Source of the DNA: Escherichia coli
Lineage (GTDB): Bacteria; Pseudomonadota; Gammaproteobacteria; Enterobacterales; Enterobacteriaceae
Length of the DNA stretch: 64,000 bases
Direction: 5' to 3' (one strand)
Assembly: GCF_030384885.1 (NCBI RefSeq)
Contig: NZ_CP128613.1
Shown here piece after piece: positions 6,416-62,392 of this stretch. The translations under genes and the position numbers were made by a program. How positions within the stretch are numbered: position 1 is the first letter of the stretch; each line of letters begins with the position of its first letter. The notes below the pieces were generated by a model. It was not told where the DNA came from and searched no databases. It was given only the letters and a program-made list of their open reading frames with translations.

Positions 6416-8263
6416 TCAGATTGACAGCTTCTTGACGCGCTTGCCGCCATATAGCAGGTTTACGATGGCACGCGTACCGACAATCGCGGTAAACATCGAC
6501 GTCGCCACACCGATACCGGTAGTAATCGCGAACCCTTTAATTGCCCCGGTACCCACTGCGTACAGGATGATGACTTTAATCAGCGTGGTGATGTTCGCAT
6601 CGAAAATGGAACTGAATGCGCCACGATAACCTTCATCAATTGCCTGTTGAACAGTACGTCCGTTGCTCAACTCTTCTTTAATACGTTCGTTGATCAGTAC
6701 GTTCGCATCGACCGCTACCGCAAGGGTTAAGACGATACCCGCGATACCTGGCATACTCAGCGTTGCGCCTGGCAACAGCGACATAATGCCGACGATCAAG
6801 ATCAAGTTGGCAATCAGAGCACTGGTCGCAATCAGACCAAACTTCTTATAGAAGATGATCATAAACAGAATAGAAACCAGCAGACCGGCAAGGCAAGCCT
6901 CCAGCCCCTGTTCAATGTTCTGCATACCCAGAGTCGGGCCAATGGTACGTTCTTCAACAATCTGAATTGGCGCGATCAACGCACCGGCACGCAGCAAAAG
7001 TGAAAGCTGACGGGCTTCGTTCGGGTTGTTAATACCGGTGATACGGAAGCTGTTACCCAGACGAGACTGGATGTTAGCGATGTTAATCACCTCTTCCTGT
7101 TTCACCAGAACCGCACGACCGTTAGCATCTTTCTTACCGCTGTCTTTGTACTCCACAAATAGGGTCGCCATCGGTTTGCCGATGTTGTCCTTGGTGAAGT
7201 TAGACATGATGTTGCCACCAGCGCTATCGAGCGAGATGTTAACCTGCGGCTGGTTGTATTCGTCCTGGCTGGAAGTGGAATCAGTGATGTGGTCACCGGT
7301 CAGAATTACGCGTTTGTACAGCACAACAGGCTGACCTTCGCGGGTCTGTTTCACTTCAGAGTCGCCCGGTACGCGTCCAGACGCAGCAGCGGCCTGGTCA
7401 ACGTTGGTATTTACCAGACGGAATTCCAACGTTGCCGTTGCACCCAGAATCTCTTTCGCTCGTGCGGTGTCCTGGATACCAGGCAGCTCAACAACGATAC
7501 GGTCAGCACCCTGACGCTGAACCACCGGCTCCGCCACGCCAAGCTGGTTTACACGGTTACGCAGTATGTTGATGTTCTGTTGCACCGCGTATTCACGCGC
7601 CTCACTCAGACGCGCATCGCTCATTACCGCACGCAGCTGATTGCTGCCCTGGCTACTAATCACCAGGTCCGGATGACGCTTGCTCAGATACGCAATGGCT
7701 TCATCACGAGCTTTAGCATCGCGGAAAGTGATGCTCAGGCCGTAGTTGTTTTCTTTACGAACGGTGGTATACGGGATGCCCTTTTCGCGCAGGTCGCTGC
7801 GCAGGCTATCGATATTTTGTTCCTGGAGTTTGCCAAGCGCGGTGTCCATATCCACTTCCATCAGGAAGTGAACGCCGCCACGCAGGTCAAGGCCGAGCTT
7901 CATCGGCTCAGCGTGAATAGCTGCCAGCCAGCGCGGCGTTGCCGGGGCAAGGTTAAGCGCCACGACGTATTTGTCACCCATAACGCCCATTAATGCTTCA
8001 CGAGCGCGCAGCTGGGTGTCAGTGGAGTCGAAGCGCGCAAGAATAGCGCCCTCTTCCAGTGCCACAGACTTAGCAGTTATTTTTTCTTCTTGTAACGTTT
8101 TCTGGACCTGGATCAGCGTTTGCTCACTGGCGGCGACTCCGCGCGCACCAGTGATCTGAACAGCCGGATCCTCACCAAACAGGTTGGGAAGCGCATACAG
8201 CAGACCGATGACAATCACCACGATCAGCATGACGTACTTCCACAAAGGATAACGGTTTAACAC
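6416..8263 (-). CDS. secD: Protein translocase subunit SecD
   Basis: 615-aa [20 protein letters not shown]...; GTG start (cac at 8261-8263). Confidence 0.95.
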
Positions 8264-8290
8264 GGCAATTCCCTTAGGGAAAAATTTTAA

Positions 8291-8623
8291 TTACAGCGCC
8301 TTCATGGTGCCTTTCGGCAGGACGGCAGCTACGAAGTCACGTTTAATAACTACTTCAGTGGTGTCATTCAGTGCGATAGCAATGTAGCCGTTTTCCGCTA
8401 CTTTGGTTACGCGACCGACCAGGCCACCGTTCGTCAGAACTTCATCACCTTTGGCAATGGAGTCCATCAGCTTTTTGTGTTCTTTGGTGCGCTTCTGCTG
8501 TGGACGCAGGATCATGAAATAGAAAATCAGACCGAATACCACCAGCATCAAAATCAAAGACATCGGGCTACCTTGCGCCGGTGCACCCGTTGCCGCTACC
8601 GCATCAGAAATAAAAAAGCTCAT
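8291..8623 (-). CDS. yajC: Sec translocon accessory protein YajC
   Basis: 110 aa from ATG 8621-8623, MSFFISDAVAATGAPAQGSPMSLIL... Confidence 0.93.
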   Translation of the reverse strand: MSFFISDAVAATGAPAQGSPMSLILMLVVFGLIFYFMILRPQQKRTKEHKKLMDSIAKGDEVLTNGGLVGRVTKVAENGYIAIALNDTTEVVIKRDFVAAVLPKGTMKAL

Positions 8624-8645
8624 TAAATTTCCCTCATTATTAATA

Positions 8646-9788
<1,143 letters not shown>

Positions 9789-9827
9789 TCAGAAAAACAG
9801 TCCAACGTTTAAACCAGCGCCGCGGAA

Positions 9828-10898
9828 TTACTCCCCGACGCGCTCATTAATTGCCTGCGGATTGTACGTGATAAACATCGCATCACCGTAACTAAAAAAG
9901 CGATATTTCTCTTCTACCGCCGCTTTATAGGCGTTCATAGTGTGTTGATAGCCGGCAAATGCCGAAACCAGCATAATCAGCGTCGATTCAGGAAGGTGGA
10001 AGTTCGTCACCAGCGCATCGACCACTTTGTACTGGAAGCCCGGATAGATAAAGATTTGGGTATCGTCAAAGAACGGTTCGATGAGATCGTTTTTCGCCGC
10101 CTGGGCCGCGCTTTCCAGCGAACGTACCGAGGTGGTGCCAACCGCAATCACCCGATTACCGCGTGCTTTTGCTGCCAGTACCGCGTCTACCACATCCTGC
10201 GGCACTTCAGCGTATTCTGAGTGCATGATGTGATCTTCAATGGTGTCGACGCGCACCGGCTGGAAAGTACCCGCACCAACGTGCAGAGTTACGAACGCCA
10301 TCTCCACGCCTTTGGCGCGCAATTTTTCCAGCAAAGGTTCGTCAAAATGCAGCCCGGCAGTCGGGGCCGCTACCGCGCCCGGTTTTTCACTATAAACTGT
10401 TTGATAAAGTTCGCGGTCTGCATCTTCGTCCGGACGGTCGATGTACGGCGGCAGTGGCATGTGGCCGATGCTGTTGAGGATATCCAGTACAGAACGATCA
10501 TCATTAAATTCGACTTCAAACAGTGCGCCGTGGCGAGCGGTCATTGTTGCGTTGATACTTTCGTCATCGCCCAACAGCAGCTCTGCGCCCGGTTTTGGCG
10601 CTTTCGAAGCGCGAATATGCGCAAGAATGCGTTTGTCGTCGAGCATACGCTCAACCAGCACTTCAATCTTGCCGCCGCTGGCTTTACGCCCAAACAGGCG
10701 CGCCGGGATCACGCGGGTATTATTAAAAACCAGAAGATCGCCGGGGTTGAGCTTATCGAGTAAATCGGTGAAAGTACCGTGCGTCAGCGCGCCCGTCGGC
10801 CCGTCCAGCGACAGTAAACGACAGCTACTGCGTTCAGGCATTGGATAGTGGGCAATCAGGGATTCGGGCAATTCAAAGGAGAAATCGGTAACGCGCAT
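9828..10898 (-). CDS. queA: S-adenosylmethionine:tRNA ribosyltransferase-isomerase
   Basis: 356-aa [22 protein letters not shown]... Confidence 0.95.
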
Positions 10899-27217: not shown

Positions 27218-29493
27218 TGTTTTTCCTCAAGCCGATTACGCGCTTCACTGCGAATTTGCCGCGTTGCCCCGGTTTTCACTAAATCACGTAACTGCGAAAG
27301 ATCGGGCTGATCGACAAATAAGATTAATGATGGATCCTCTTTTAACCACGCCGTTTTCACATCGGCAGCCAACTGTGGATTATTAATAGCCAGCGCCCGA
27401 TCCTGTGACTCAGTCAATGTCGTTAACAAAGAGGCTGGGGTATGTACATTGCGCAACGCCGTCTGCCGCAAATGATCATTGTGACTTTTCAGCAATCCGC
27501 ACCACCATTCATCATCTGATTTATCTTTTATCGTATCCAGCTCCGCAAAAATATCGCTTTCCTCATGATTCCAGCGGTGTAATCCTCTTTCACTTTGTCT
27601 ACGGGTGCTATTTTTCATACTGACAATAGACAACGCCCAGTCGGAGTTAAAACGATACTGTTGATCGAGTTTGTTGATAATTCCGGAGGGTAAATCTTTA
27701 TTATCAAATAACTGGTTTCGCATCCGATAGCGGTATTCAGCAGGTAAATAAACCAGTAAATCGATAGCATTATTAAGCATCTCTTCGTCAATAATACCAT
27801 TATCAATCAGCGCCAGCTGTACTTCGTAGGCTTGCTCTTGATCTTCTTGCCGTTTACTCATCATTAATTTTAAGGTGTGTTGCCATAATTGTTTCTTATA
27901 CTCCAGAGGTAACAATTTATCGCGTGCCAGCTCATACCAGATGCTGGGAATGTCATGCTGATTCAGTAGATAACTAATCACTTCCTTCGAGGTCAGATAA
28001 CGCATGCCGTCACGTAAGTTGTGCACATCTTCTTTTGCCAAAGTCAGTTGACGCGACTCCGGCAAAGCGACCAATAACGCCTTCACGATATTTTTATTTT
28101 CTTTATTATCCAGATACATTTGTTCTGCGATACGTTCAACATCCTCTGTCCTCAGGGTCGCTGACAGTTGGGTGATTTTTAGTTCAGTAAGCGTCCGGGC
28201 TAATGCTTGACGAACTTTCAGCGATTTATCTTTACTCAACAACACCGCTTGTTGTGCGGTTAAATCGGTTCCGGTAATTCTTTCGCGTAACTCCGGATCT
28301 TCGCTATTTATCAATTCATCAACCACTGCAGTTGGAACCAGCCAGGCGTAATCGTAATGGCTGATTAATGTCTTGCGCACACTGAGAAAAGGGCTTTGAC
28401 TTAACGACACAACAATATCAGGAGAAAGATTATCCTGTCTGGCCTGCTCCAGCTGTACGCTCTCGACGGGTACAGACATTAATTTTTTATTCACTTCGGC
28501 GGATATATTGCTGTTTTTAACCAGTCCTCTGGCAACAGCTTCATCTTTAATTAATTCATCGGTAAGCAAATGCATGTGTTGAGCAGGCCAGGACTGCGCC
28601 ATTGATTCACGCGTCTGGTCATCAGGGTGCTGTAACAATTGCAGCATAACGGCGGTTGACAAACTTTCTATATGAGTCAGAAAACGTGCCACCAGTGGAT
28701 CTTCATGCTTTATTTTATCCGCAAGGAAATTATCGAGTTTCCCCGTTTCAATCCATTGTAATTTCTCATTAATTTCAGAAGCAGCTTTATCTCGAAAAAG
28801 AGGTAAACCCTGAACGATATTGTCTACGACGCTATCATAGTCAGGATACGCATTGGAAATATTATCGGTTTCGATTTCACTATGATCATAAAGATTAGGC
28901 GTCACCAGTGAATAGGATTTTTGAATATTCTCGTCCCAGTTATATTCTTCACCGCTTTCATCTTCATTGATATAAAACTCAGCTTTGATGACCTCAAATT
29001 GCGTTGCTTTATCGGAAACAATAATGCCTCGCGCGCTAATTCCTTTCATCACTTCAAAGTTGTGATCATTATAATCAGCATAAACCAAACCTTTCGCTGT
29101 CATCTGACCTTTCACATACGCGAAATCATGATTAATAAAGTTGTCGACAATAACATTACCTAATACAATCAGATGACCATTACCTGACAGATAATCATCA
29201 TAATCGCCGGAAATCGTTAAATTACCGTTCACCACCAGTTTATTTTGATTGCTGAAGTTAGCGGGTAATGATAGGTCACCATTATGATAATACCAGCGGA
29301 TATTATCTTTTAGCATATAAGCAGCTTCCATACTATCGTTGGTTGCCGCTTTAACCACGTTGCGCTCATCTGCCGTCATAAGATGAAAGTCAGAGGTGAT
29401 AAGGTCCTCGCTACTGATCCACTCTATGGCACATGCATTGCCAGTCATAAAAAACACGACCATACAGATGACCAATATATTAATTCTATTCAT
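27214..29493 (-). CDS. Hypothetical exported repeat protein, ~759 aa, unassigned family
   Basis: Long uninterrupted ORF; ATG at 29491-29493 gives [22 protein letters not shown], a Sec-type signal with an AXA-like cleavage site (an in-frame GTG lies 3 codons upstream at 29502). Coding DNA is visibly AT-rich compared with neighbours. Confidence 0.8.
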
Positions 29494-29636
29494 AATCTTC
29501 ACTGATATTTATATCAACCTTGATGAATTATGAATATATCGGAAATCGAAAAAATCGCAGCAAAGGAAATATTATTATGGGTTAAAGAGAGGATATTTCA
29601 GAAAAATGCCCTCCCGTTCAAGGGGAAGGCGGGGAA

Positions 29637-43653: not shown

Positions 43654-46623
<2,970 letters not shown>

Positions 46624-48162: not shown

Positions 48163-49014
48163 TTACCCCGCCCGATAAAACGGAATATCCCCAAGAATCG
48201 TCGCCCGATGCATAATCCGCCGCTGTGGCAGGTAATCCGCATTGGCATAGTGCTGAGTCACTCGGTTATCCCAAATCGCAATATCATTCGGTTGCCAGCG
48301 CCAGCGCACCTGAAACTCCGGTTTAGTGATATGGGCAAACAAAAAACCTAACAAGGCTTCGCTCTCTTTCTCGCTGACGTCAACAATTCGCGTAGTAAAG
48401 CCTTCGTTCACAAACAGCGCCTGTTTACCGGTCACCGGATGCGTTCGCACAACCGGATGGAGTAACGGTGGATTTTTCGCGACCGCCTCGTGCCAGCGTT
48501 GATGCTCCTCCTCGGTTTTGCGGTACTTGTATTCCGGGAACGATTTACGGAAATCATGCTCCGCACATAACCCGCTCAATAGTTGACGGAAGGGAACTGA
48601 GAGCGCCTCATAGGCCGCAATACCGCTGCTCCATAGCGTATCGCCGCCGGTCGAGGGTAACTCTTTCGCCGCCAGAATCGCCCCTGCGGGTGGCGTTTCA
48701 ATAAATGTCACATCGGTGTGCCAGTTATCGTTATCCGGCGGATTATCGTTATGAGTATCCAGTACGATAATCTCGTCAACCCCTTCGGCATGAGGGTAAA
48801 CAGGATGAATATGCAGTTCGCCAAAACGTTGGGCCAGCGCGCGTTGCTGCTGCGGCGTAATGGCCTGTTCACGCAGAAACACCACCTGATGACGCAGTAC
48901 CGCATGGTAAAGCTGTTCAAACTGGTTATCACTTAACGGGCGCGTCAGGTCGACACCCGTAATTTGTGCGCCAATATACGGCCCCAGCGGGGTAATGCTC
49001 AGACGTTCACTCAT
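48163..49014 (-). CDS. tauD: Taurine dioxygenase
   Basis: 283-aa [30 protein letters not shown]... with H-x-D iron motif WHTDVTF. Confidence 0.95.
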
Positions 49015-49838
49015 TGTACTTCTCCATGCCAGGGCGTCAGGCGGCGCTGTAACGCGCGCAGACCCAGTTCTAAAAGAAAGGCGATACTCGCAATCACCGC
49101 GATCCCCGCCAGCACCACGTCAGTCGCGAGAAATTCACCCGCTGACTGGACCATAAAACCCAAACCGCGCGTCGCGGCAATCAACTCCGCCGCCACCAGG
49201 GTAGACCAGCCCACACCCAGACCAATGCGTAATCCGGTGAGAATTTCCGGCAGCGCACCGGGCAAAATAACAAACCACAGTACCTGTGTGCGGCTGGCCC
49301 CCAGCGACTGAGCGGCACGAATGCGAACCTGCTGCGCGCTTTTCACCCCCGCCAGCGCCGACATCGCCACAGGTGCAAAAATCGCTAAATAGATCAGTAA
49401 GATCTTCGAGGTTTCACCAATACCAAACCAGATCACCATCAGCGGCAAATACGCCAGCGGCGGCACCGGGCGATACAATTCAATTATCGGATCCAGAATG
49501 CCGCGCACCGTCGGGCTTAGTCCCATGGCGATCCCAACCGGAATGCCGATCAACACCGCCGCAAGTAGCGCCAGCACAATGCGCGTCAGGCTGGCTGCCA
49601 GATGTTGCCACAGGGTGGCGTCCATAAATCCTTGAGGTCCGGCAATAGTGAGCAGTTTTGCCAGTACCTGTTGCGGCGGCGGCAGAAACAGCGGGCTAAT
49701 CAGTTGCAGGGCCGCCACCGCCCACCATACAGTGAGTAAAACCGCTAACGTGCCAATGCTTAAGGTCACCTGACGCGAGAGCGGCCAGCGCCATTTCAGC
49801 CGATGCGAATGCAGTTTTTCATTAATGAGCACACTCAT
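49011..49838 (-). CDS. tauC: Taurine ABC transporter permease
   Basis: 275-aa membrane ORF; 4-nt overlap with both tauD and tauB. Confidence 0.93.
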
Positions 49839-50602
49839 GAGAACGCCTCCCGTTGCTCAAATACGCGGCTTAAAACATATTCGCGCATGGCGATGAATTG
49901 TGGATCGGACTTGATGCTGCGGCTCGGTTCCCCGGCAACAAAGCGGCGGGCGAAGTTGAGCGGCAGCCGTTCCAACACACGGCCAGGGCCGGGTGAAAGC
50001 AGTACCAGCTCAGTCGCCATAAACACCGCTTCTTCTATATCGTGGGTAATCAACAGCACCTGCTTGCCCGTCTCCTGCCAGAGTTTCAGCAGCAGGGTTT
50101 GCATCTGGTCGCGGGTGAAGGCGTCCAGCGCGCCAAACGCTTCGTCGAGTAATAACAGCTGGGGATTTGCCGCCAGCGCGCGGGCAATCCCTACCCGCTG
50201 ACGTTGACCGCCGGAAAGCTGCCAGATATAGCGTTTTTCTGCGCCTTCTAGCCCCACTTTTTTCAGCATCTGGTGCGCGATTTCCAGGCGCTGTACTTTC
50301 TCTACACCTGCCAGTTGCAGGCCGAATGCCACGTTGTCTACCACATTACGCCACGGCAACAGCCCTTCATTCTGAAAAACCACGCCCCGCTCTGCGCCCG
50401 ATCCCTCAATGCACTTACCCGCCAGTTGAATGCTGCCATGCTGATAAGGCACAAAACCGGCAATCAGATTCAGCAAGGTGGTTTTGCCGCAGCCAGACGG
50501 TCCCAGAACCACCAGAAGCTCGCCGCTTTCCAGCGTCAGGTTGATATCTTCCAACGCCGGTTTGCCGCCATAATCGGCGTAAAGATGAGAGATTTGCAGC
50601 AT
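49835..50602 (-). CDS. tauB: Taurine ABC transporter ATPase
   Basis: 255-aa ORF with Walker [10 protein letters not shown] and signature LSGGQRQRV. Confidence 0.94.
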
Positions 50603-50614
50603 CTGCGCCTCCTT

Positions 50615-51577
50615 TTATTGCACGAAGCGCGAGGTCACGTACTGGCTGTAATCATTCGCCACGGCAGGGACTTTGCCCTGATCTTTCAAAAACTGCGCGG
50701 TATCGATGATCGCTTTATTCACCGGTCCGGTCAGTTCTGCCGTTTGTTGCTGCGGCGTCAGATAGGTATTCCCCTTCACCAGCCCCGGAACGTCACCTTC
50801 CGGCACGCCGCTTAAACGCGCCAGCTTGCTGATGTTTTCCGGCTGTTTCAGCCACGCGTCTGGGTTAGCAATGTACGGTTGCTGAGCATCGATGGCGCTT
50901 TTAGCGAACGCTTTCACGACTTCAGGATGTTTCTCGGCAAAATCTTTGCGCACTACCCAGACGTCCAGTGTCGGCGCGCCCCACTGCCCGACCTGTTCAG
51001 AATCGGTCAGCACCTTGCCATCTTTTTCCAGGGCGTTAACCGCCGGTGCCCAGACATAAGCACCATCAATGTCTTCCCGCTGCCAGGCGGCGATAATCGC
51101 AGGCGGCTGCAGGTTCACAATCTCCACTTGCCCGGGTTTAATGCCCCAGTGTTTCAGCGCCGCCAGCAAGCTGTAATGCGTGGTGGAGATAAACGGTACG
51201 GCAATGCGTTTGCCAATGAGATCTTCGGGTTTGCTGATGGTTTTCTTCACCACCAGCGCTTCGGAGTTACCCAGTTTTGACGCCAGCAAGAAGACCTCAA
51301 TCGGCACCTGTTGGCTGGCTGCAACCGCTAATGGGCTGGAACCGAGGTTGCCGATTTGCACATCGCCAGAAGCCAGTGCCCGCACGATGCTGGCCCCGCT
51401 GTCAAACTTACGCCAGTCCACGGTCGCCCCGCTCTCTTTAGCAAAGGTGTTATCAGCCTGAGCCACTTTCGCCGGTTCAGCGGAGGTTTGATAGGCCACA
51501 GTGACGTTCACCGCCTGTGCCTGAAAAGCGATGAATGCCAGTGCGGCAAGAAGTGTGTTACGCGATGAAATTGCCAT
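50615..51577 (-). CDS. tauA: Taurine ABC transporter periplasmic binding protein
   Basis: 320-aa ORF with signal peptide MAISSRNTLLAALAFIAFQAQA. Confidence 0.94.
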   Translation of the reverse strand: MAISSRNTLLAALAFIAFQAQAVNVTVAYQTSAEPAKVAQADNTFAKESGATVDWRKFDSGASIVRALASGDVQIGNLGSSPLAVAASQQVPIEVFLLASKLGNSEALVVKKTISKPEDLIGKRIAVPFISTTHYSLLAALKHWGIKPGQVEIVNLQPPAIIAAWQREDIDGAYVWAPAVNALEKDGKVLTDSEQVGQWGAPTLDVWVVRKDFAEKHPEVVKAFAKSAIDAQQPYIANPDAWLKQPENISKLARLSGVPEGDVPGLVKGNTYLTPQQQTAELTGPVNKAIIDTAQFLKDQGKVPAVANDYSQYVTSRFVQ

Positions 51578-51879
51578 GATTGTCTGCTCCCCTGTCTTGT
51601 TATGGGAGCAGTATTTCGTTGCTGGTCAGTTTGATAAAGGAATTAAAACGTCTTGTTAAGAACAAAGCGTTTTTAGAAAAAAACTGGCAATGGTTAGCGA
51701 GTTTACGCATTTTGCAGCTTGGGCGAATGTAGCATGCCGATTCACAAACCAGATCAGATGTTCGCTCTCCGGCAAATTATTGCCATTTTGTTACATCCAT
51801 TCCATATCTGTCGCTGGTTGATTGCCAGCGACGCGCCGTGATGCATGATAGGAGAATGAGATAATAAGAGAAGAAAAGT

Positions 51880-52509
51880 ATGATTAGGGTTGTGCTGGTG
51901 GATGACCATGTGGTGGTGCGCTCTGGCTTCGCACAATTACTCTCTCTGGAAGACGATCTGGAGGTCATTGGTCAGTACAGTTGTGCCGCGCAGGCATGGT
52001 CGGCATTAACTCATAATGACGTTAATGTTGCCGTCATTGATATCGCCATGCCGGACGAAAATGGCCTCAGTCTGCTTAAGCGTCTGCGTGCACAAAAACC
52101 GCAATTCCGCGCCATTATTCTTAGCATTTATGACACGCCAACCTTTGTACAAAGCGCTCTGGATGCTGGTGCCAGCGGCTATTTGACCAAACGCTGTGGG
52201 CCGGAAGAGTTAGTGCAGGCGGTGCGCTCGGTCGGGATGGGCGGGCATTATCTCTGCGCCGATGCAATTCGGGCTTTACGCGGCGGCGAGCAACCCGCCC
52301 AGGCGCTGGAAATTCTCACCCCACGAGAACGTGAAGTGTTTGATTTATTAGTCAAAGGCGACAGTGTAAAAGAGATCGCCTTTAAGCTCGAACTCAGCCA
52401 TAAAACGGTACATGTACATCGCGCCAACGTGCTGGGAAAACTGAACTGTCATAGCACCATTGAGCTGGTGCATTTTGCACTCAATCACCATCTGCTGGCG
52501 GGGCATTAA
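51880..52509 (+). CDS. NarL/FixJ-family response regulator, UhpA-like
   Basis: 209-aa ORF MIRVVLVDDHVVVRSGFAQLL... plus C-terminal LuxR helix-turn-helix (KTVHVHRANVLGKL); closely resembles UhpA as I recall it. Confidence 0.85.
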   Translation: MIRVVLVDDHVVVRSGFAQLLSLEDDLEVIGQYSCAAQAWSALTHNDVNVAVIDIAMPDENGLSLLKRLRAQKPQFRAIILSIYDTPTFVQSALDAGASGYLTKRCGPEELVQAVRSVGMGGHYLCADAIRALRGGEQPAQALEILTPREREVFDLLVKGDSVKEIAFKLELSHKTVHVHRANVLGKLNCHSTIELVHFALNHHLLAGH

Positions 52510-54050
52510 TGTCGCGTAACCTTCGTCATTGGGTGATTTCGCTGTTTATTGTGCTGGCCTGGGGAAGCGGCTGGCTGATGTTGTGGACGCTCAGCTTTTA
52601 TCTGACCAATAACGGTCAACAGGCAGTGTTATTTCTGCCGCACGGAGTTTACCTCGCTCTTCTTATTTTGCTCTCTCGCCGTTACTGGCCTGCGTTGGTG
52701 CTCCCCCCTTTGCTGATGATGTTCTGGCTGCACAGCGAGCAACTGTTGAACGGCTATCTCATGCTGGCAACGCCGGTTATTAGCCTGCTTCCTGCCATCC
52801 TTGCACAAAACGTCTGGCACCGTTTTCCACTTTACTGGCAGCGTCTGACGTTGCTGCTAGCCTCAGTAACAGCAGCTTCATTGCTGAATACAGCCATGCT
52901 AACCCCTTTTATGTCAGGCCCAATAATGCTGCCCGGTCTGACCTCATTTACCGGCGGCGTATTGTTGACGCCGTTTGTCTATCTCATCTTTGAGTTTCTG
53001 CGCCAGCAGCATCGCTATCAGCTTCTGAGACTCGATACGCATAATCCCCCCTTGCGAACCTCTTTAATCATCTGGTGTAGCCTATTTTTTATTATTGGTA
53101 TCGGCACCCAGATGGTGTTGTCGCCTGAAATCGAACGCCTGCTGCTGATCGTGGTATTTCTACCCAATGTGGTCATGGCCTGGAAATTTGGCTGGCAAGG
53201 TGGCGTACTCTCGGGGCTTTTGGGCAGCATGATGATCACTATTGCCCGCCAGATTGGCGTGGGCTTTAGTAACCTGGTGGAACTGGAGATTTTTCTCGCA
53301 ACCCAGGCATTGCTGGGAATTGGCCTGGGCATTGCCATCAGTCGCCAGCAACATCTGGCGCTAAACCTGCATCATTACCGTCAGCGACTGGAGGCAGAAC
53401 TGGCAGCACGGCGGGCATTGGCTGAAAAGCTGATCCACACCGAGGAAGACACGCGTAAAAGCCTGGCTCGCGAGCTGCACGACGAAATCGGTCAGAACAT
53501 TACCGCCATTCAGATCCAGTCGCAACTGGTGACGCGGGCACGCGATCCGGCGCAAGTTCATTCCGCAGCTAGCCAAATCAACGAACTCGCCCGCCGCATT
53601 CATCTCTCCACCCGCCAGTTGCTGCGCCAGTTGCGGCCACCCGCGCTTGATGAACTGACATTCCGCGAAGCATTACTTCATCTGATTAATGAATTTGCCT
53701 TTAGTGAACGCGGCATTCATTGCCAGTTTACCTATCAACTAACCACCACGCCAGAAAACGAAACGGTTCGCTTTACACTGTATCGGTTATTGCAGGAGTT
53801 ACTCAATAACGTCTGTAAACACGCCGAAGCCAGCGAAGTGACGATTATTCTGCGCCAGCAGGGAGAGATATTGCACCTGGAGGTCAGCGACAACGGTATA
53901 GGAATCGCCAGCGGGAAAATGACCGGATTTGGCATTCAGGGGATGCGTGAACGCGTCAGTGCCCTGGGCGGCGACTTAACGCTCGAAAAACATAACGGTA
54001 CGCGAGTAATTGTTAACCTGCCCACATTTTTGCAACAAATCGCCGGATAA
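52509..54050 (+). CDS. Sensor histidine kinase, UhpB-like
   Basis: 513-aa ORF: multi-TM N-terminal domain, H-box ELHDEIGQ (HisKA_3 type), C-terminal ATPase; start overlaps the regulator stop (TAATG). Confidence 0.85.
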   Translation: MSRNLRHWVISLFIVLAWGSGWLMLWTLSFYLTNNGQQAVLFLPHGVYLALLILLSRRYWPALVLPPLLMMFWLHSEQLLNGYLMLATPVISLLPAILAQNVWHRFPLYWQRLTLLLASVTAASLLNTAMLTPFMSGPIMLPGLTSFTGGVLLTPFVYLIFEFLRQQHRYQLLRLDTHNPPLRTSLIIWCSLFFIIGIGTQMVLSPEIERLLLIVVFLPNVVMAWKFGWQGGVLSGLLGSMMITIARQIGVGFSNLVELEIFLATQALLGIGLGIAISRQQHLALNLHHYRQRLEAELAARRALAEKLIHTEEDTRKSLARELHDEIGQNITAIQIQSQLVTRARDPAQVHSAASQINELARRIHLSTRQLLRQLRPPALDELTFREALLHLINEFAFSERGIHCQFTYQLTTTPENETVRFTLYRLLQELLNNVCKHAEASEVTIILRQQGEILHLEVSDNGIGIASGKMTGFGIQGMRERVSALGGDLTLEKHNGTRVIVNLPTFLQQIAG

Positions 54051-54122
54051 CCAGGAAAAAGTCTTAGGCATCCCGGATTTTCTCTCATCCTCTTTCACTT
54101 TCATTTTCATATAGTCAGCAAC

Positions 54123-55439
54123 ATGGAGACGACCATGCACGCGCGTTCAGCGAGAGAGATTAATCAATGCTACCGGACATTACGTCCGCGATTGCTGATG
54201 TGCATGATTATTGGCTACGCCGCATTTTATCTGACGCGAAAAAGCGTGAATTACGTCCTTCCGGCGCTGCAAACCGACCTCGGACTGGATAAAGGCGACA
54301 TTGGCCTGCTGGGTTCGCTGTTTTATCTCAGCTACGGATTGTCGAAATTTACCGCCGGACTGTGGCATGACAGCCACGGACAACGCGGTTTTATGGGCAT
54401 CGGCTTGTTCGCCACTGGGCTATTGAACGTGGTGTTTGCCTTTGGCGAATCACTTACGCTTCTGCTTGTGGTCTGGACACTGAACGGATTTTTTCAAGGC
54501 TGGGGGTGGCCACCGTGTGCCCGCTTACTGACCCATTGGTACTCCCGTAATGAACGTGGTTTCTGGTGGGGCTGCTGGAATATGTCGATCAACATTGGCG
54601 GAGCGATTATTCCGCTGATTAGCGCCTTTGCCGCCCACTGGTGGGGCTGGCAGGCCGCGATGCTGACACCGGGGATTATCAGCATGGCATTAGGGATCTG
54701 GTTAACGCTACAGCTTAAAGGCACACCCCAGGAAGAGGGATTACCGACGGTGGGTCAGTGGCGTCACGATCCGCTGGAATTACGTCAGGAACAACAAAGT
54801 CCGCCGATGGGTCTGTGGCAAATGTTGCGCACCACAATGCTGCAAAATCCGATGATCTGGCTGCTGGGTGTCTCTTATGTACTGGTTTATGTGATCCGGA
54901 TTGCGTTAAACGACTGGGGCAATATCTGGCTGACGGAAAGCCACGGCGTCAACCTACTCAGCGCCAACGCCACGGTAATGCTGTTTGAAGTGGGCGGCTT
55001 ACTCGGCGCGTTATTTGCCGGATGGGGTTCGGATTTGCTGTTTAGCGGGCAGCGAGCCCCCATGATTTTGCTGTTTACCCTTGGGTTGATGGTTTCGGTC
55101 GCTGCACTCTGGTTGGCACCGGTTCATCACTATGCCCTTCTGGCTGTGTGCTTTTTTACTGTGGGCTTTTTTGTCTTTGGCCCGCAAATGCTGATTGGAC
55201 TTGCGGCAGTGGAATGTGGACACAAAGCTGCGGCGGGTTCAATCACCGGATTTCTCGGTCTGTTCGCCTATCTCGGTGCGGCGCTGGCAGGCTGGCCGTT
55301 GTCGCTGGTTATCGAACGCTACGGCTGGTCGGGAATGTTCAGTTTACTCTCGGTCGCCGCAGTACTTATGGGTTTACTGCTGATGCCGTTACTGATGGCG
55401 GGCATCACCACCACTCACGCTCGAAGGATAAAACAATGA
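54123..55439 (+). CDS. MFS organophosphate:phosphate antiporter-family protein, UhpC-like
   Basis: 438-aa 12-TM-like ORF; follows the UhpA/UhpB-like pair in uhpABC order. Confidence 0.8.
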   Translation: METTMHARSAREINQCYRTLRPRLLMCMIIGYAAFYLTRKSVNYVLPALQTDLGLDKGDIGLLGSLFYLSYGLSKFTAGLWHDSHGQRGFMGIGLFATGLLNVVFAFGESLTLLLVVWTLNGFFQGWGWPPCARLLTHWYSRNERGFWWGCWNMSINIGGAIIPLISAFAAHWWGWQAAMLTPGIISMALGIWLTLQLKGTPQEEGLPTVGQWRHDPLELRQEQQSPPMGLWQMLRTTMLQNPMIWLLGVSYVLVYVIRIALNDWGNIWLTESHGVNLLSANATVMLFEVGGLLGALFAGWGSDLLFSGQRAPMILLFTLGLMVSVAALWLAPVHHYALLAVCFFTVGFFVFGPQMLIGLAAVECGHKAAAGSITGFLGLFAYLGAALAGWPLSLVIERYGWSGMFSLLSVAAVLMGLLLMPLLMAGITTTHARRIKQ

Positions 55440-56467
55440 AAATGCCCCTTACCTCTACTCTGATTGCTTCTGCCGTTGCGCTGGCAACCTTAACGGGTGC
55501 CGCACAAGCGAAAGGTCGACTGGTGGTCTATTGCAGCGCCACTAATGAAATGTGTGAGACCGAAACCAAAGCGTTTGGCGAGAAATATGATGTGAAAACC
55601 TCGTTTATCCGCAACGGCTCCGGTAGCACCCTGGCAAAAGTCGATGCTGAAAAGAAAAACCCACAGGCTGACGTCTGGTACGGCGGCACCTTAGACCCGC
55701 AGTCGCAGGCCGGCGAGATGGGCCTGTTACAGGCATATAAATCGCCTAACCTTGAACAGATCATGGAAAAATTCCGCGATCCGGCAAAAGTGAAAGGAAA
55801 CCTTTCCTCCGCCGTTTATGTGGGGATCCTCGGGTTTGGCGTCAACACAGAGCGTCTGAAAGAGAAAAACCTGCCTGTGCCGAAGTGCTGGAAAGATCTC
55901 ACCAAACCTGAATATAAAGGCGAAATTCAGATTGCCGATCCACAAAGTTCCGGTACCGCCTACACCGCGCTGGCTACCTTTGCGCAGCTGTGGGGGGAAG
56001 ATCAGGCCTTTGATTATCTAAAACAACTGAACGCCAACGTCTCCCAGTACACCAAATCAGGCATAGCCCCGGCACGTAACGCCGCCCGTGGCGAAACGGC
56101 GATTGGTATTGGCTTCCTGCATGACTACTCGCTGGAAAAAGAACAGGGCGCGCCGCTGGAGTTGATTTCCCCGTGTGAAGGTACGGGCTACGAAATTGGC
56201 GGCGTCAGCATTCTGAAAGGCGCGCGCAACCTCGACAACGCCAAACTGTTTGTGGACTGGGTATTATCAAAAGAAGCTCAGGAACTGGCGTGGAAGAAAG
56301 GGAAGTCTTATCAGATCCTGACCAATACCACCGCCGAAACGTCGCCAAATTCGCTGAAGCTCGACGACCTGAAATTAATCAACTACGACATGGATAAATA
56401 CGGTTCAACTGATGTTCGTAAGGCATTAATTAATAAATGGGTCAGCGAAGTGAAGATGGGTAAATAA
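55436..56467 (+). CDS. afuA: ABC transporter periplasmic substrate-binding protein (AfuA/FbpA family)
   Basis: 343 aa from ATG 55436 (ATGA overlap with upstream stop); signal MKMPLTSTLIASAVALATLTGAAQA; the track ORF 55148.. is an upstream over-extension. Confidence 0.85.
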   Translation: MKMPLTSTLIASAVALATLTGAAQAKGRLVVYCSATNEMCETETKAFGEKYDVKTSFIRNGSGSTLAKVDAEKKNPQADVWYGGTLDPQSQAGEMGLLQAYKSPNLEQIMEKFRDPAKVKGNLSSAVYVGILGFGVNTERLKEKNLPVPKCWKDLTKPEYKGEIQIADPQSSGTAYTALATFAQLWGEDQAFDYLKQLNANVSQYTKSGIAPARNAARGETAIGIGFLHDYSLEKEQGAPLELISPCEGTGYEIGGVSILKGARNLDNAKLFVDWVLSKEAQELAWKKGKSYQILTNTTAETSPNSLKLDDLKLINYDMDKYGSTDVRKALINKWVSEVKMGK

Positions 56468-56535
56468 ACCCGCATTGCGTGCACTTGCCGGGTGCAGCAC
56501 AGACGCCTGCCCCGGCCAACCATACCGGAACTGCT

Positions 56536-58614
56536 ATGTCACAGACACTTGCACTCCATCCCGCGAAAAAGCGGGATGCGATTTTCCTTTGGGTTTTGCT
56601 GGGCTGGCTGGCATTTATCCTGTTGCCGAGCTGGAGTCTCGATTATGGTCTGCTGGAGTCCACGAGTGATGAGATCCTCGAGGCGTACAGCTGGTCGCAT
56701 TTTAATATCAGCTGGCTGTGGTATTTACTCCCGAGTTTGCTGCTGGTTCGCCCGTTTAATGAGGCCAAACGCGAGCAGCGTAGCCGTCATTATTTTGATG
56801 CAGGCTGGGCATTGCTTTGTATAGCGTTTATGGTCATCAGTGCCACCATCGTTGGCCGCGGTCTAGGCTACGCCGCCATCGTGCTGTTTATCGAATTAAG
56901 CGCGATAATGACGCTGGCCTTAACCCGCCTCGAATGGCTGGGTGGCGACCGCTTTGTGATCGGCTCGCTGATTGCGATTGTGGCGCTGATTGGCATTTTT
57001 ATCGTCTGGCCGAGCATCGCCATTTTTATCCCGATGTTCACCAACGACGCGGGAGGGTTCGCCCCACTGGCGTTTATGAATGTGCTCTCGCAGGCACATA
57101 TTGTTCAGGTGATCGTCAACTCCATCGTCTTATCGATAGCGGTGGGTATTGGCTGTACTTTCTTCGGTCTGGTGCTGGCGATATATACCACGCGCATCGC
57201 TAAACGCAGCGCAGTAATCGGCCGCATCTTTTCCATTCTGCCAATTGTCACGCCACCGTTTGTGGTCGGCTTAGGCGTTACGCTCATGATGGGGCGCTCC
57301 GGCTACATAACGGAATTTATGGTGGAGTGGTTTGGGCTGACCAACACCAACTGGCTGTATGGTTTTACCGGGATCTGGCTGGCACAGGTCCTGGCATTTA
57401 CGCCAATGGCTTTTATGATCCTCGATGGGGCCATTAAAACCATTCATCCCTCGCTGGAAGAAGCCTCCTACACCCTGCGCGCCAGCCGCTGGCAAACCTT
57501 TAACGGTGTGTTTGTGCCGTTGTTAAAGCCCGCGCTTGCCAATGCCTTTTTAATCGTCGTGGTACAGTCACTGGCTGACTTCAGTAACCCGCTGGTGCTT
57601 GGCGGCAACTTCGACGTACTGGCGACGCAAATTTACTTCTACATTACCGGCTCGCAGCTGGATTATCAGGCCGCCAGCACCCTTGGCGCTTTCCTGCTGC
57701 TGTTCTCGCTACTGGTGTTCTGCGTCCAGTATATGTGGATTGGTAAACGCTCTTACGTCACGGTTTCCGGAAAGTCCTACCGCGGCGATGTCCAGCCACT
57801 ACCGGTCACCCTGGTGTGGAGCGTGGTCGCCATACTTGCGATATGGATTGCCTTTAACGCCCTGCTCTATGGCAGCATTTTCTACGGCAGCTTCACCGTG
57901 AACTGGGGCGTAGACTACACCCTAACGCTGGATAACTTTATCAAGTTATTTGGTCAGGGGATGAGCGACGGCGCATGGCCTTCACTGTTAGATACCTTGC
58001 TCTACGCCGGGATTGCCGCACCCATTACCGCTATTTTTGGCCTGCTCATCGCCTGGGTGGTGGTGCGCCAACAATTCAAAGGCAAAAAGACCATCGAGTT
58101 CACCACCATGTTGTGCTTTGCCGTACCGGGTACAGTGGCGGGTGTCTCGTATATTCTTGCCTTTAATAGCGCCCCAGTCTATCTCACCGGAACGGCAGCA
58201 ATTGTGATTATCTCGATGGTGATGCGCAACGTTCCGGTGGGTATTCGCGCCGGGATTGCAGGTCTGGGGCAGATCGACAAATCGCTGGATGAAGCCTCAC
58301 TTAGCCTGCGTGCGGGTTCCCTGCGAACCATTACGCACATTTTACTGCCGTTGTTACGCCCAGCTATTCTCTCGGCCCTGATTTACAGCTTTGTGCGGGC
58401 TATCACGACGGTCAGCGCCATCGTCTTTCTCGTCACGCCGGACACACGCGTGGCAACCGCCTACATCCTTAACCGCGTAGAAGACGGCGAATATGGCGTA
58501 GCCATCGCCTACGGTTCGATTCTGATCGTGGTGATGCTGGCGATTATTTTCCTCTTTGACTGGCTGATCGGTGAAGCACGTATTTCCCGTTCTAAAGCCA
58601 AAAACCAGGCGTAA
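56536..58614 (+). CDS. afuB: ABC transporter fused permease (AfuB/FbpB family)
   Basis: 692 aa from ATG 56536 (track's GTG at 56479 is possible); two tandem permease domains. Confidence 0.85.
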
Positions 58615-58625
58615 TGGAGCGCACT

Positions 58626-59672
58626 ATGAGTCAGAAAAATTTTGTGGAACTGCGCAACGTCACTAAACGATTCGGCAGTAATACGGTTATCGACAATATC
58701 AATCTCACCATCCCACAAGGGCAAATGGTGACGCTGCTCGGTCCTTCCGGATGCGGCAAAACCACCATTCTGCGTCTGGTTGCCGGGCTGGAAAAACCGA
58801 GCGAAGGGCAAATTTTTATAGATGGCGAAGATGTCACGCATCGTTCCATTCAGCAACGCGATATCTGCATGGTGTTTCAGTCATACGCTCTGTTCCCACA
58901 TATGTCGCTGGGCGAAAACGTTGGCTATGGGTTGAAAATGCTTGGCGTGTCGCGTAGTGAAGTGAAGCAGCGGGTGAAAGATGCGCTAGCAATGGTGGAT
59001 CTGGAAGGATTCGAAGACCGCTATGTCGACCAGATTTCCGGTGGTCAGCAACAGCGTGTGGCTCTGGCCCGTGCGTTGATCCTTAAGCCTAAAGTGCTGC
59101 TGTTTGATGAGCCGTTAAGTAACCTCGATGCCAACCTGCGTCGCAGCATGCGCGATAAAATCCGCGAGCTGCAAAAGCAATTTAACATCACTTCGCTCTA
59201 TGTGACTCACGATCAAAGTGAAGCTTTCGCGGTGTCCGACACCGTGTTGGTGATGAATAAAGGTCACATCATGCAAATTGGCTCGCCGCAGGATCTCTAT
59301 CGTCAGCCCGCCTCCCGCTTTATGGCAAGTTTTATGGGCGACGCCAACCTGTTCCCGGCGAACTTTAGCGAAGAGTATGTCGATATCTACGGTTATCGCC
59401 TGCCGCGCGCGGCGCATTTCCCGGCGCAAGGTAGCGGCACCGTCGGCGTTCGCCCGGAAGCCATCACCTTAAGCAATCACGGCGAAGAGAGTCAGCGTTG
59501 TGTTATTCGCCATGTCGCCTACATGGGGCCGCAGTACGAAGTGACCGTAGAATGGCATGGTCAGGAGATTTTATTGCAAGTCAACGCCACCCGTTTACAG
59601 CCCGATATTGGTGAACACTATTACCTCGAAATCCATCCTTACGGGATGTTTGTTTTAGCGGATGCGGCATAA
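58626..59672 (+). CDS. afuC: ABC transporter ATP-binding protein (AfuC/FbpC family)
   Basis: 348 aa from ATG 58626, [16 protein letters not shown]...; Walker [10 protein letters not shown], signature [15 protein letters not shown]. Confidence 0.9.
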
Positions 59673-59754
59673 AAATAGCACATAAACGGTCCCAACCTGT
59701 CTTGAGAGACCGTTCACCTGTTTAGACGTCGGACAACAATTATTCTCCGGTGTT

Positions 59755-59807
59755 ATATACTATAGGGGGGTATGCATTGACATATGGCATACCCCCCTAT
59801 AGTATAT
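59755..59807 (+). promoter_or_regulatory. frmRAB promoter embedded in a perfect 21-11-21 inverted repeat (candidate FrmR operator)
   Basis: ATATACTATAGGGGGGTATGC - attgacatatg - GCATACCCCCCTATAGTATAT; TTGACA at 59777-59782 in the spacer, TAGTAT 17 bp downstream in the right arm, frmR ATG at 59832. Confidence 0.8.
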
Positions 59808-59831
59808 TGCGTGCAGATGATGAGGTGCGAA

Positions 59832-60107
59832 ATGCCCAGTACTCCGGAAGAGAAGAAAAAGGTCCTTACTCGAGTTCGTCGTATTCGGGGGCAAATTGAT
59901 GCTCTGGAACGGTCGCTGGAGGGTGATGCCGAATGCCGTGCCATACTCCAACAGATCGCTGCCGTTCGGGGCGCGGCTAACGGGCTGATGGCAGAAGTGC
60001 TTGAAAGCCATATCCGGGAAACGTTTGACCGAAATGACTGCTACAGCCGCGAAGTCAGCCAATCCGTTGACGACACTATTGAACTGGTTCGTGCCTATCT
60101 TAAATAG
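59832..60107 (+). CDS. frmR: Formaldehyde-responsive repressor FrmR (RcnR/CsoR family)
   Basis: 91 aa from ATG 59832, [35 protein letters not shown]... Confidence 0.93.
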
Positions 60108-60111
60108 CTGA

Positions 60112-61251
<1,140 letters not shown>

Positions 61252-61343
61252 TTTCCCGCTGATTTCGCCCCGTCCAGTTCAGACGGGGTTCTCAATACCG
61301 TCCCCGGGCAGCCGTCCGGGGATTAACCATGAGATAATGACTG

Positions 61344-62177
61344 ATGGAACTCATTGAAAAACATGCCAGCTTTGGCGGCTGGCAAAATGTGTATCGGCAT
61401 TATTCCCAATCACTGAAATGTGAAATGAATGTCGGCGTCTATCTCCCACCAAAAGCCGGGAATGAAAAATTGCCGGTACTGTACTGGCTTTCGGGCCTGA
61501 CCTGTAACGAGCAGAATTTCATTACTAAATCGGGGATGCAACGTTACGCGGCTGAGCACAACATTATTGTTGTTGCGCCAGACACCAGTCCGCGAGGCAG
61601 TCATGTCGCAGATGCCGACCGTTACGATCTCGGGCAAGGTGCCGGGTTTTACCTGAACGCAACGCAAGCGCCGTGGAATGAACATTACAAAATGTATGAT
61701 TATATCCACAACGAGTTGCCGGATTTAGTGATGCAACATTTTCCGGCAACGACCAGAAAGTCTATCTCAGGTCATTCTATGGGCGGGCTGGGCGCGCTGG
61801 TGCTGGCGTTACGTAACCCAGATGAATATGTCAGCGTCTCGGCGTTTTCGCCCATTGTCTCCCCATCGCAAGTACCGTGGGGACAGCAAGCCTTTGCCGC
61901 ATATCTTGGTGAAAATAAAGATGCCTGGTTGGATTACGATCCGGTTAGCCTTATTTCACAAGGTCAACGCGTTGCGGAAATCATGGTTGATCAAGGATTG
62001 AGTGATGATTTTTACGCAGAACAGCTGCGGACTCCAAATCTTGAAAAGATCTGCCAGGAGATGAATATCAAAACGTTAATCCGTTATCACGAGGGTTATG
62101 ATCACAGCTATTATTTTGTCTCCAGTTTTATTGGCGAGCATATTGCCTACCACGCCAATAAACTGAATATGCGTTGA
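61344..62177 (+). CDS. frmB: S-formylglutathione hydrolase
   Basis: 277-aa ORF with esterase motif GHSMGG. Confidence 0.94.
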   Translation: MELIEKHASFGGWQNVYRHYSQSLKCEMNVGVYLPPKAGNEKLPVLYWLSGLTCNEQNFITKSGMQRYAAEHNIIVVAPDTSPRGSHVADADRYDLGQGAGFYLNATQAPWNEHYKMYDYIHNELPDLVMQHFPATTRKSISGHSMGGLGALVLALRNPDEYVSVSAFSPIVSPSQVPWGQQAFAAYLGENKDAWLDYDPVSLISQGQRVAEIMVDQGLSDDFYAEQLRTPNLEKICQEMNIKTLIRYHEGYDHSYYFVSSFIGEHIAYHANKLNMR

Positions 62178-62187: not shown

Positions 62188-62392
62188 ACGCCAGCCGGAT
62201 GCGGCGTGAACGCCTTATCCGCCTACATTTCGCCCATAAACCGTAGGCATGATAAGACGCGCATAGCGTCGCATCAGGCATCTGCGCACAACTGCCGGAT
62301 GCGGCGTGAACGCCTTATCCGGCCTACATTTCGCCCATGAGCCGTAGGCATGATAAGACGCGCAAAGCATCGCATCAGGCATCTGTGCACGG
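62188..62392. repeat. Tandem BIME cluster (two ~100-bp units of paired REP elements)
   Basis: Unit starting 62194 (gccggatgcggcgtgaacgccttatccgcctac...gtaggcatgataagacgcgcatagcgtcgcatcaggc) is repeated from 62294 with a few substitutions. Confidence 0.85.

Follow-up and report, generated by a model that had tools for sequence, protein, structure and literature searches.

In Escherichia the tauA–frmR interval is a genuine replacement site with multiple alleles, and in the genome described here it is occupied by the orthologue of O-island 20 (OI-20) of EHEC O157:H7 (EDL933 Z0458–Z0463). The overall explanation that we favor, and consider probable, is that this replacement site here holds the OI-20 allele with its Uhp-like sensor and Afu importer, and that the allele is an ancestral tauA neighbor lost in most E. 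coli.

The interval comprises positions 51578 to 59831 of the window (the whole 64,000-nucleotide stretch of E. coli DNA analyzed), with 51578 being the first base 5' of tauA and 59831 the last before the frmR ATG (59832), and it contains six intact coding sequences: fusR, fusK, a uhpC paralogue (hereafter uhpC'), afuA, afuB, and afuC. The RefSeq entry for E. coli 2013C-4282, a finished chromosome that is 100% identical, annotates all six with no pseudogene flags. The features of the interval and its flanks are as follows.

50615–51577, minus strand: tauA, conserved flank on the left (hit to the NCBIfam TauA equivalog model at 693 bits, cut-off 490; tauA in RefSeq).
51578–51715, minus strand: tauA regulatory module, found in island and empty-site alleles, the match to the ST131 empty site reaching 51715.
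51716–51775, no strand: variable spacer at the left edge of the block missing from the empty-site allele, whose homology stops at 51715/51716.
51776–51879, plus strand: fusR promoter module, a promoter-like match with a −35 TTGCCA (51822–51827) and a −10 CATGAT (51844–51849).
51880–52509, plus strand: fusR, UhpA-like NarL/LuxR-type response regulator, orthologue of O157 Z0463 (similarity and model scores).
52509–54050, plus strand: fusK, UhpB-like MASE1 histidine kinase, orthologue of O157 Z0462 (similarity and model scores).
54051–54122, plus strand: fusK–uhpC' spacer of 72 bp, promoter-like, with a candidate response-regulator box (phylogenetic footprint).
54123–55439, plus strand: uhpC', orthologue of O157 Z0461 (similarity and model score).
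55436–56467, plus strand: afuA, periplasmic hexose/heptose-phosphate binding protein (similarity to solved AfuA structures).
56536–58614, plus strand: afuB, fused double-domain ABC permease of 692 aa (two NCBIfam permease domains; RefSeq coordinates).
58626–59672, plus strand: afuC, ABC ATPase (NCBIfam PRK11432, 698 bits against a cut-off of 496).
59673–59739, no strand: afuC 3' flank, restricted to the island allele and forming the right edge of the variable block (start of BLAST homology).
59755–59807, plus strand: frmR operator palindrome with an embedded promoter (21-nt arms, 100% complementary).
59832–60107, plus strand: frmR, conserved flank on the right (hit to the NCBIfam FrmR equivalog model at 188 bits, cut-off 133; RefSeq annotation).

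Identity with OI-20 is evident at every level compared. The window and an O157-type strain form a gapless colinear alignment from 48501 to 62000, the six-gene block is 94.2% identical in nucleotide sequence to O157 OI-20, and the coding sequences are of the same lengths as in the O157-type strain (630, 1542, 1317, 1032, 2079, and 1047 nt). The order fusR-fusK-z0461-afuA-afuB-afuC, the single orientation, and the tauA–frmR site are likewise all as in OI-20. Carriers of the block include O157:H7, O55:H7, O145:H28, and NADC 5570/86-24 (86-24 at 94.2% identity), 86-24 being the strain in which FusKR was studied. OI-20 of O157 and the window allele nonetheless differ by about 6% of nucleotides, the window coming from a different, outlying lineage of E. 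coli. Since it is orthologous to OI-20, the segment is already known; afuABC and FusKR have been located on this island (PMC4546632), and the sensor genes are named as Z0461, Z0462, and Z0463 (PMC6199705).

A different set of genes lies between tauA and frmR in K-12 MG1655, where the order is frmR-yaiO-yaiX-yaiP-ykiC-yaiS-tauA with yaiX split by IS2A; the yai/IS2 order that a preliminary description of this DNA had given for K-12 is therefore correct. That description also called for alignment with other E. coli, and a survey of 5,426 complete genomes shows that the interval has three main states: the yai cassette in 4,246, an empty site in 595, and the six-gene locus in 519, these counts depending on BLAST coverage thresholds and leaving 66 genomes outside all three classes. 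With 519 of the 5,426 genomes carrying it, the block is not a chance feature. Strain 100117, compared with the window over 32 kb, is 99.4% identical in the island and 95–99.9% over the entire length. In the empty allele tauA and frmR are 305 bp apart, and the intervening sequence was read by eye as one REP. The alleles also extend across species, with the empty allele in E. albertii and Escherichia sp. E1V33 and the yai allele in E. whittamii, each at species-level divergence.

The polarity of the comparison is probably the reverse of a K-12-centered view, with the K-12 yai cassette appearing to be a foreign insert; its GC content is 44.9%, with a 30% GC spacer, and a second yai copy (about 86–89% identical) is located elsewhere in the chromosome, next to an IS66 remnant. 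The preliminary description had further stated that afuBC survive in K-12 only as an IS-flanked remnant elsewhere, and they are found in the cryptic prophage CP4-6 as afuC and an afuB pseudogene cut by IS1B. This remnant belongs to the same gene family as its window counterparts but is a different locus without afuA and the sensor genes. With Citrobacter portucalensis it shares 99.1% identity, against 85% at the nucleotide level with the afuB 3' end and afuC of the window, and we reject the idea that it is a relic of the tauA–frmR locus. Its order, mmuP-mmuM-afuC-afuB, is the native order of Citrobacter, Klebsiella, and Enterobacter; this arrangement, together with the C. portucalensis identity, identifies the K-12 remnant as a xenologue.

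The junctions of the variable segment adjoin the regulatory regions of tauA and frmR, as originally proposed and as borne out by alignments with K-12 and ST131. On the left, similarity to K-12 breaks at 51615/51616, 38 bp upstream of the tauA ATG; the K-12 tauA upstream region matches cleanly over these first 38 bp only and then at roughly 60% similarity to about −117. Against the ST131 empty-site allele the left junction is at 51715/51716, and the intervening tauA regulatory module contains blocks that are conserved among 14 sequences of several genera. The adjacent spacer (51716–51775) varies in length between genera in a multi-genus alignment, and in some of them it holds REP- or ERIC-like inserts, as called by eye. 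On the right, homology with both K-12 and ST131 begins at 59740 by BLAST and can be followed by eye back to about 59728, placing the junction 15–27 bp upstream of the frmR operator palindrome. This palindrome is kept in K-12, ST131, and E. albertii, and its promoter (TTGACA at 59777 and TAGTAT ending at 59805) matches at 10 of 12 positions.

The locus is not confined to Escherichia. Of 80 species-representative loci, 34 have the six genes next to tauA, and these come from 10 genera (Escherichia, Citrobacter, Klebsiella, Raoultella, Enterobacter, Leclercia, Lelliottia, Silvania, Huaxiibacter, and Intestinirhabdus), and in C. gillenii the six genes are gone while a remnant of the fusR promoter is present. 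Divergence of the island follows that of the tau operon: identity to the O157 type is 94.2% for the island and 94.6% for tau, and to C. werkmanii 82.3% and 83.1%, respectively. This parallel divergence, together with the native GC content, makes the locus look ancestral and repeatedly lost or replaced. In the other genera mmuM, not frmR, lies beyond afuC, and the right-hand synteny is therefore Escherichia-specific. Within Escherichia, this restricted right-hand synteny and the presence of empty and yai alleles in other species are points against an ancestral reading.

Under the ancestral explanation, most E. coli would have lost the locus, either by a deletion that left the 305 bp empty site with its one REP or, as in K-12, by replacement with the lower-GC yaiO-yaiX-yaiP-yaiS cassette, with alleles probably being exchanged by homologous recombination in the conserved flanks.

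A contrary view holds that a few E. coli lineages gained the block by lateral transfer, as an O-island or pathogenicity islet that entered the tauA–frmR interval. It accords with the small number of carriers (just 519 of the complete E. coli genomes), with the lack of the block in E. albertii, and with reviews that describe FusKR as a lateral acquisition (PMC11644481) or as a recent product of horizontal transfer, with Enterococcus faecalis as a possible source (PMC4810492). We nevertheless consider it unlikely, because the same six genes adjoin tauA in 10 genera, the island diverges in step with the tau flank at each depth tested, and FusK orthologues in other Enterobacteriaceae are 76–87% identical. 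Signs of mobility are also lacking. Profile searches and annotation reveal no IS, transposase, or integrase in the segment, upholding the earlier claim of an intact six-gene Uhp-like/Afu locus with no IS, to which the repeat scans also attest; there are no terminal or flanking direct repeats, a scan of 51400–60000 returning nothing beyond the frmR operator palindrome and short repeats attributable to chance. The segment contains no tRNA and no Rfam family, with two sub-threshold chance matches only. The search of the junctions for IS inverted-repeat scars or REP elements, suggested at the outset, was run on the window allele and found neither; by consensus searches REP is absent inside the segment and at its edges, the sole copies in the window being at 4803 and 62294. 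Base composition is not atypical, GC being 52.7% in the segment, 50.9% in the window, and 51.6–56.0% in the flanking operons. The segment thus does not have the character of a genomic or pathogenicity island—there is no integrase, IS, tRNA, att site, or repeat, GC is typical, and the same site is occupied in related genera—and nothing in the sequence indicates the action of an IS or integrase.

It is also conceivable, though we think it very unlikely, that the Escherichia ancestor already had the empty or yai allele and that the locus was regained from another enterobacterium by recombination, with tauA as one anchor. The spread of all three alleles over different Escherichia species would fit such a history, as would the right flank (frmR here, mmuM in other genera), and K-12 provides an example of Citrobacter afu DNA entering E. 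coli. A regained locus should however be closer to its donor than its flanks are, and island identity to Citrobacter and Klebsiella (82–84%) is not above that of tau (83%); moreover, the alleles of three Escherichia lineages are 6–7% apart, as are their flanks. An assembly or sampling artefact, or a strain-private IS-mediated rearrangement, is refuted by the 100% identical finished chromosome, by the same arrangement in 519 complete genomes, and by repeat scans showing no IS ends or repeats.

The products of the first three genes resemble the K-12 UhpABC proteins (33–54% identity). FusR is 49% identical to UhpA, its receiver domain aligning through the Asp region, and scores 194 bits with the UhpA equivalog model, below the cut-off of 258, and is therefore a UhpA paralogue. 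FusK is 33% identical to UhpB over its full length, with the His box ELHDEIGQ, and scores 373 bits against a cut-off of 408; the start of fusK and the stop of fusR overlap by 1 nt, an overlap identical to that of K-12 uhpA/uhpB. UhpC' is 54% identical to K-12 UhpC and exceeds the cut-off of the NCBIfam UhpC subfamily model (589 against 564 bits). With FusR and FusK below the equivalog cut-offs and the UhpC model alone passing, the trio is not a set of UhpABC orthologues; judged by these scores, fusR-fusK-uhpC' is a paralogous set and not the uhp operon itself. The true start of uhpC' is probably the ATG at 54135; the first ATG is ACG in other genera, GGAG stands in front of the second, and PGAP annotates the shorter form in strain 100117.

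Downstream, the start of afuA overlaps the uhpC' stop by 4 nt. AfuA matches the structures of A. pleuropneumoniae AfuA (PDB 4R72–4R75) over residues 25–343 with E = 3e-170, and the five residues reported to contact ligand, H205, D206, and E229 to the sugar and S37 and T150 to the phosphate (PMC4546632), are all conserved (window H229, D230, E253, S62, and T174). The afuABC genes are predicted to encode an ATP-driven importer of glucose-6-P, fructose-6-P, and sedoheptulose-7-P, placed where uhpT would be. The locus shares a fused permease, a single ATPase, and a very similar AfuA with AfuABC of A. pleuropneumoniae and Citrobacter rodentium (Sit et al. 2015), whereas the operon lies behind a Uhp-like sensor set in those Enterobacteriaceae loci that were compared.

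Two promoter-like regions are candidates for control of these genes. In the fusR promoter module ATTTTGTTACAT, GATTGCCAGC, and GGCATCATAG are conserved across genera, and the fusK–uhpC' spacer contains CCAGGAAAAAGTCTTAG (54051–54067), GGATTTTCTCTCATCC (54075–54090), and TATAGT (54110–54115). Across 20 sequences representing 10 genera the CCAGGAAAAAGTCTTAG and GGATTTTCTCTCATCC blocks show little or no variation; with TATAGT as reference they occupy about −71 to −55 and −47 to −32, and no second copy of CCAGGAAAAAGTCTTAG occurs in the window with up to 3 mismatches allowed. The K-12 uhpT promoter contains CCAGGTTTTGCCTGG, and the spacer blocks appear comparable to its CCAGG-containing stretch, with positions that resemble the UhpA sites there. 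Terminator and promoter scans, whose counts were no higher than the shuffled expectation, served only for locating candidate hexamers.

The most likely regulatory model, drawn only from gene architecture and phylogenetic footprinting, is that the UhpC-like membrane receptor and the FusK kinase would phosphorylate FusR, which would act at the conserved candidate box in the 72-bp spacer and from there control a uhpC'-afuABC transcript. Gene order, the FusK His box, the FusR receiver Asp region, and the downstream position of afuABC are consistent with a system that may work like UhpABC. As in K-12 UhpABC-UhpT, the order is regulator, MASE1 kinase, and MFS-type receptor; a transporter gene follows, and the regulated gene is preceded by an element containing CCAGG. 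The window differs from uhp in that the transporter is an ABC importer rather than the UhpT antiporter, that the promoter-like element is upstream of uhpC' and not downstream, and that the signal is, according to reviews, fucose and not glucose-6-P.

These reviews describe fucose as the FusK signal in EHEC and FusR as a repressor of z0461 (PMC11644481, PMC6199705), and published EHEC work describes a response to fucose and the repression of LEE, a virulence locus that is the reported FusR target. The reported fucose signal and z0461 repression differ from simple Uhp-like activation by a sugar phosphate. We tentatively put forward a joint reading, which is possible though somewhat short of an even chance, in which OI-20 is no acquired pathogenicity islet but the ancestral tau neighbor, maintained next to the REP-only and yai alleles as an old cross-species polymorphism, the trio would be mainly a sugar-phosphate sensor driving uhpC'-afuABC from 54051–54091, and the fucose and LEE role in EHEC would be a secondary, lineage-specific recruitment.

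The O-island versus K-island difference was known already, and both sugar-phosphate import by AfuABC and virulence regulation by FusKR have been studied; added here are the cross-genus synteny with tauA, the tau-like divergence, the Citrobacter origin of the K-12 remnant, and the conserved blocks of the fusK–uhpC' spacer. Reviews portray FusKR as recently gained by lateral transfer and as having contributed to the rise of hypervirulent EHEC, but contrary to this the data indicate an old, vertically inherited locus that has been lost or overwritten in about 90% of sequenced E. coli. The well-studied K-12 tauA upstream region is also shown to be a strongly diverged allele. The vertical reading alters how the presence of the locus is interpreted in pathogen genomics, and points to a housekeeping role in nutrient uptake.

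The interval between tauA and frmR (51578-59831), running from the first base 5' of tauA to the last base ahead of the frmR ATG, is 100% identical to that of the finished chromosome of E. coli 2013C-4282, in which RefSeq annotates six intact coding sequences flanked by tauABCD on one side and frmR-frmA-fghA on the other. The features are:

50615-51577, minus strand: tauA, left flank of the interval
51880-52509: fusR, 49% identity to K-12 UhpA
52509-54050: fusK, 33% identity to UhpB over its full length, His box present
54123-55439: uhpC', 54% identity to UhpC and above the cut-off of the NCBI UhpC model
55436-56467: afuA, E = 3e-170 to PDB 4R72-4R75
56536-58614: afuB, fused double permease
58626-59672: afuC, ABC ATPase
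59832: ATG of frmR, right flank of the interval

Because FusR and FusK do not reach the equivalog cut-offs for UhpA and UhpB, the fusR-fusK-uhpC' trio is a paralogous Uhp-like set and not the uhp operon; the 1-base overlap of fusR and fusK is shared with uhpA and uhpB of K-12. PDB 4R72-4R75 are structures of Actinobacillus pleuropneumoniae AfuA with G6P, F6P and S7P (Sit et al., PMC4546632), and alignment to them shows that the AfuA encoded here keeps all five residues reported there to contact ligand (S37, T150, H205, D206 and E229).

The segment is the already known difference between O-island 20 (OI-20) of EHEC and K-12. Both afuABC and the FusKR two-component system lie on OI-20 in EHEC (Sit et al., PMC4546632), where Z0461 is transporter-like, Z0462 is fusK and Z0463 is fusR (PMC6199705). 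O157:H7, O55:H7 and O145:H28 genomes and strain 86-24 all have this block, at about 94.2% identity, and the window is colinear with an O157-type strain, without gaps, over 48501-62000; each gene has the same length in both.

The preliminary description gave different genes for this position in K-12, and afuBC only as an IS-associated remnant elsewhere. This map proves right, since MG1655 has the order frmR-yaiO-yaiX (split by IS2A)-yaiP-ykiC-yaiS-tauA, and its CP4-6 prophage carries afuC with an afuB pseudogene cut by IS1B; alignment to K-12 and other E. coli finds the interval different and the six genes absent from K-12 here. Its further points, an intact locus without IS sequences and junctions beside two regulatory regions, are likewise borne out, and both its observation and its interpretation are supported. 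Left homology to K-12 stops at 51615, 38 bp 5' of the tauA ATG; right homology starts at 59740, and our own inspection of the alignment extends it to about 59728. The right junction thus lies 15-27 bp 5' of a perfect 21-nt palindrome (59755-59807). The palindrome overlaps a promoter-like TTGACA-17-TAGTAT, and together they are the frmR operator region. Scans of the segment and its edges found neither direct nor inverted terminal repeats, nor any IS sequences or inverted-repeat scars, tRNA genes, REPs or Rfam families. The window holds two canonical Y-type REPs outside the segment, at 4803-4836 and, just beyond it between frmB (fghA) and yaiL, at 62294-62327.

A third state is seen in an ST131 genome with just 305 bp separating tauA from frmR; on the left, homology to it reaches 51715, and the right junction is the same as against K-12. 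Among 5,426 complete E. coli genomes, 4,246 have the yai state (K-12-type yaiS-spacer-tauA junction), 595 the 305-bp empty site, which holds one REP by our own reading, 519 the six-gene block and, by subtraction, 66 none of these. The empty allele recurs at species-level divergence: E. albertii and Escherichia sp. E1V33 show the ST131 junctions, and all three have the same intervening sequence, read as a single REP. This scar is common to different species. The yai allele occurs in E. whittamii, also at species-level divergence, so that Escherichia as a whole contains all three alleles in carriers separated by species-level divergence.

The K-12 yai segment has a GC content of 44.9% (30% in its spacer), and another 578 records have a yai cassette of about 86% identity. 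In the single example inspected (E. coli 1428_w1_hybrid, L006:4815-8021) the cassette lies elsewhere on the chromosome, and its homology to the K-12 copy extends only over the coding region, yaiO through yaiS. This second-site yaiO-acetyltransferase-yaiP-yaiS copy is about 86-89% identical to that of K-12 and adjoins an IS66 remnant and ibrB-like genes, which suggests that the yai cassette is itself mobile. Escherichia, Klebsiella and Enterobacter share a highly conserved module upstream of tauA (51578-51715); beyond -38 the K-12-type region (L001:8618-9232) drops to only about 60% similarity, within a 615-bp spacer of 30% GC. By this comparison, the well-studied K-12 tauA upstream region is the unusual allele.

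A TauA scan of one genome per species gave 80 loci, in 34 of which the same six genes directly adjoin tauA in divergent orientation (Escherichia, Citrobacter, Klebsiella, Raoultella, Enterobacter, Leclercia, Lelliottia, Silvania, Huaxiibacter and Intestinirhabdus). Divergence of the block parallels that of the tau operon, with identities to the window of 94.2% and 94.6%, respectively, for the O157 type, 93.5% and 91.1% for a divergent Escherichia lineage (L009), and 82.3% and 83.1% for C. werkmanii. GC content is 52.7% in the block and 50.9% in the whole window. In block-less species (e.g. E. cloacae, E. hormaechei and R. terrigena) the next gene is about 125-210 bp from tauA, and C. gillenii lacks the block and keeps a remnant of the fusR promoter. 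Reviews describe FusKR as laterally gained (PMC11644481), with E. faecalis suggested as a source (PMC4810492), but a recent gain does not fit synteny beside tauA in ten genera, tau-like divergence, the GC content, or block-less species with a remnant. On these same grounds, we favour an old, vertically inherited six-gene locus that would have been lost recurrently. Within Escherichia itself, where all three alleles occur, any of them may have been the ancestral state.

A further caveat to this reading is that in other genera afuC is followed 3' by mmuM-mmuP instead of frmR. Citrobacter, Klebsiella and Enterobacter natively have mmuPM-afuCBA-uhpC'-fusKR adjoining tauABCD. The K-12 afuC-afuB' remnant (L087:7326-11163) is 99.1% identical to Citrobacter portucalensis, and its mmuP-mmuM-afuC-afuB block is colinear with C. 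youngae at 93%; because of this identity and the native mmuPM-afuCB order, the remnant is captured Citrobacter-type chromosomal DNA.

The 72-bp fusK-uhpC' spacer bears a strong phylogenetic footprint, with four elements invariant or nearly so in 20 sequences from 10 genera: block 1, CCAGGAAAAAGTCTTAG (54051-54067); block 2, GGAYTTTCTCTCATCC (54075-54090); a -10-like hexamer, TATAGT/TACAGT (54110-54115); and a GGAG ribosome-binding site. Blocks 1 and 2, which contain an AAAGTC/GACTTT inverted repeat, lie at about -71 to -55 and -47 to -32 from the hexamer, a span similar to that occupied by UhpA at the uhpT promoter, whose K-12 sequence includes CCAGGTTTTGCCTGG. Given the 4-nt overlap of the uhpC' stop and the afuA start, we propose that uhpC'-afuABC would form a single transcript under FusR control, with the candidate box in this spacer. 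According to reviews, in EHEC fucose activates FusK, and FusR represses ler, fuc genes and z0461 (PMC11644481, PMC6199705). The true uhpC' start is probably 54135, since other genera have ACG in place of the annotated ATG (54123), and the ATG at 54135 has GGAG ahead of it and is the start chosen by PGAP in strain 100117. What we read as ERIC-like insertions (CCCCAGGAGCTTACATAAGTAAGTGACTGGGG) break the fusK-uhpC' or tauA-fusR spacers in some genera, and in Raoultella planticola such an insertion separates the conserved box from the -10-like hexamer of the fusK-uhpC' spacer.

The source strain itself belongs to an outlying E. coli lineage. Identity of the whole window (1-64000) to K-12 is only 93-97%, and for the conserved secD-tgt segment (6000-10000) none of the other genomes among the 5,426 reaches 99% (next best 98.5%). 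Two further stretches lack a K-12 counterpart or are strongly diverged: about 1.9 kb by the ykiA region (27556-29494) and the 5' part of the yaiT/ehaB autotransporter gene (44997-46540), which is split by IS3 in K-12.

Beyond the known island, the locus thus yields an argument on the polarity of the change, a third allele, the Citrobacter origin of the K-12 remnant, and a candidate regulatory box.
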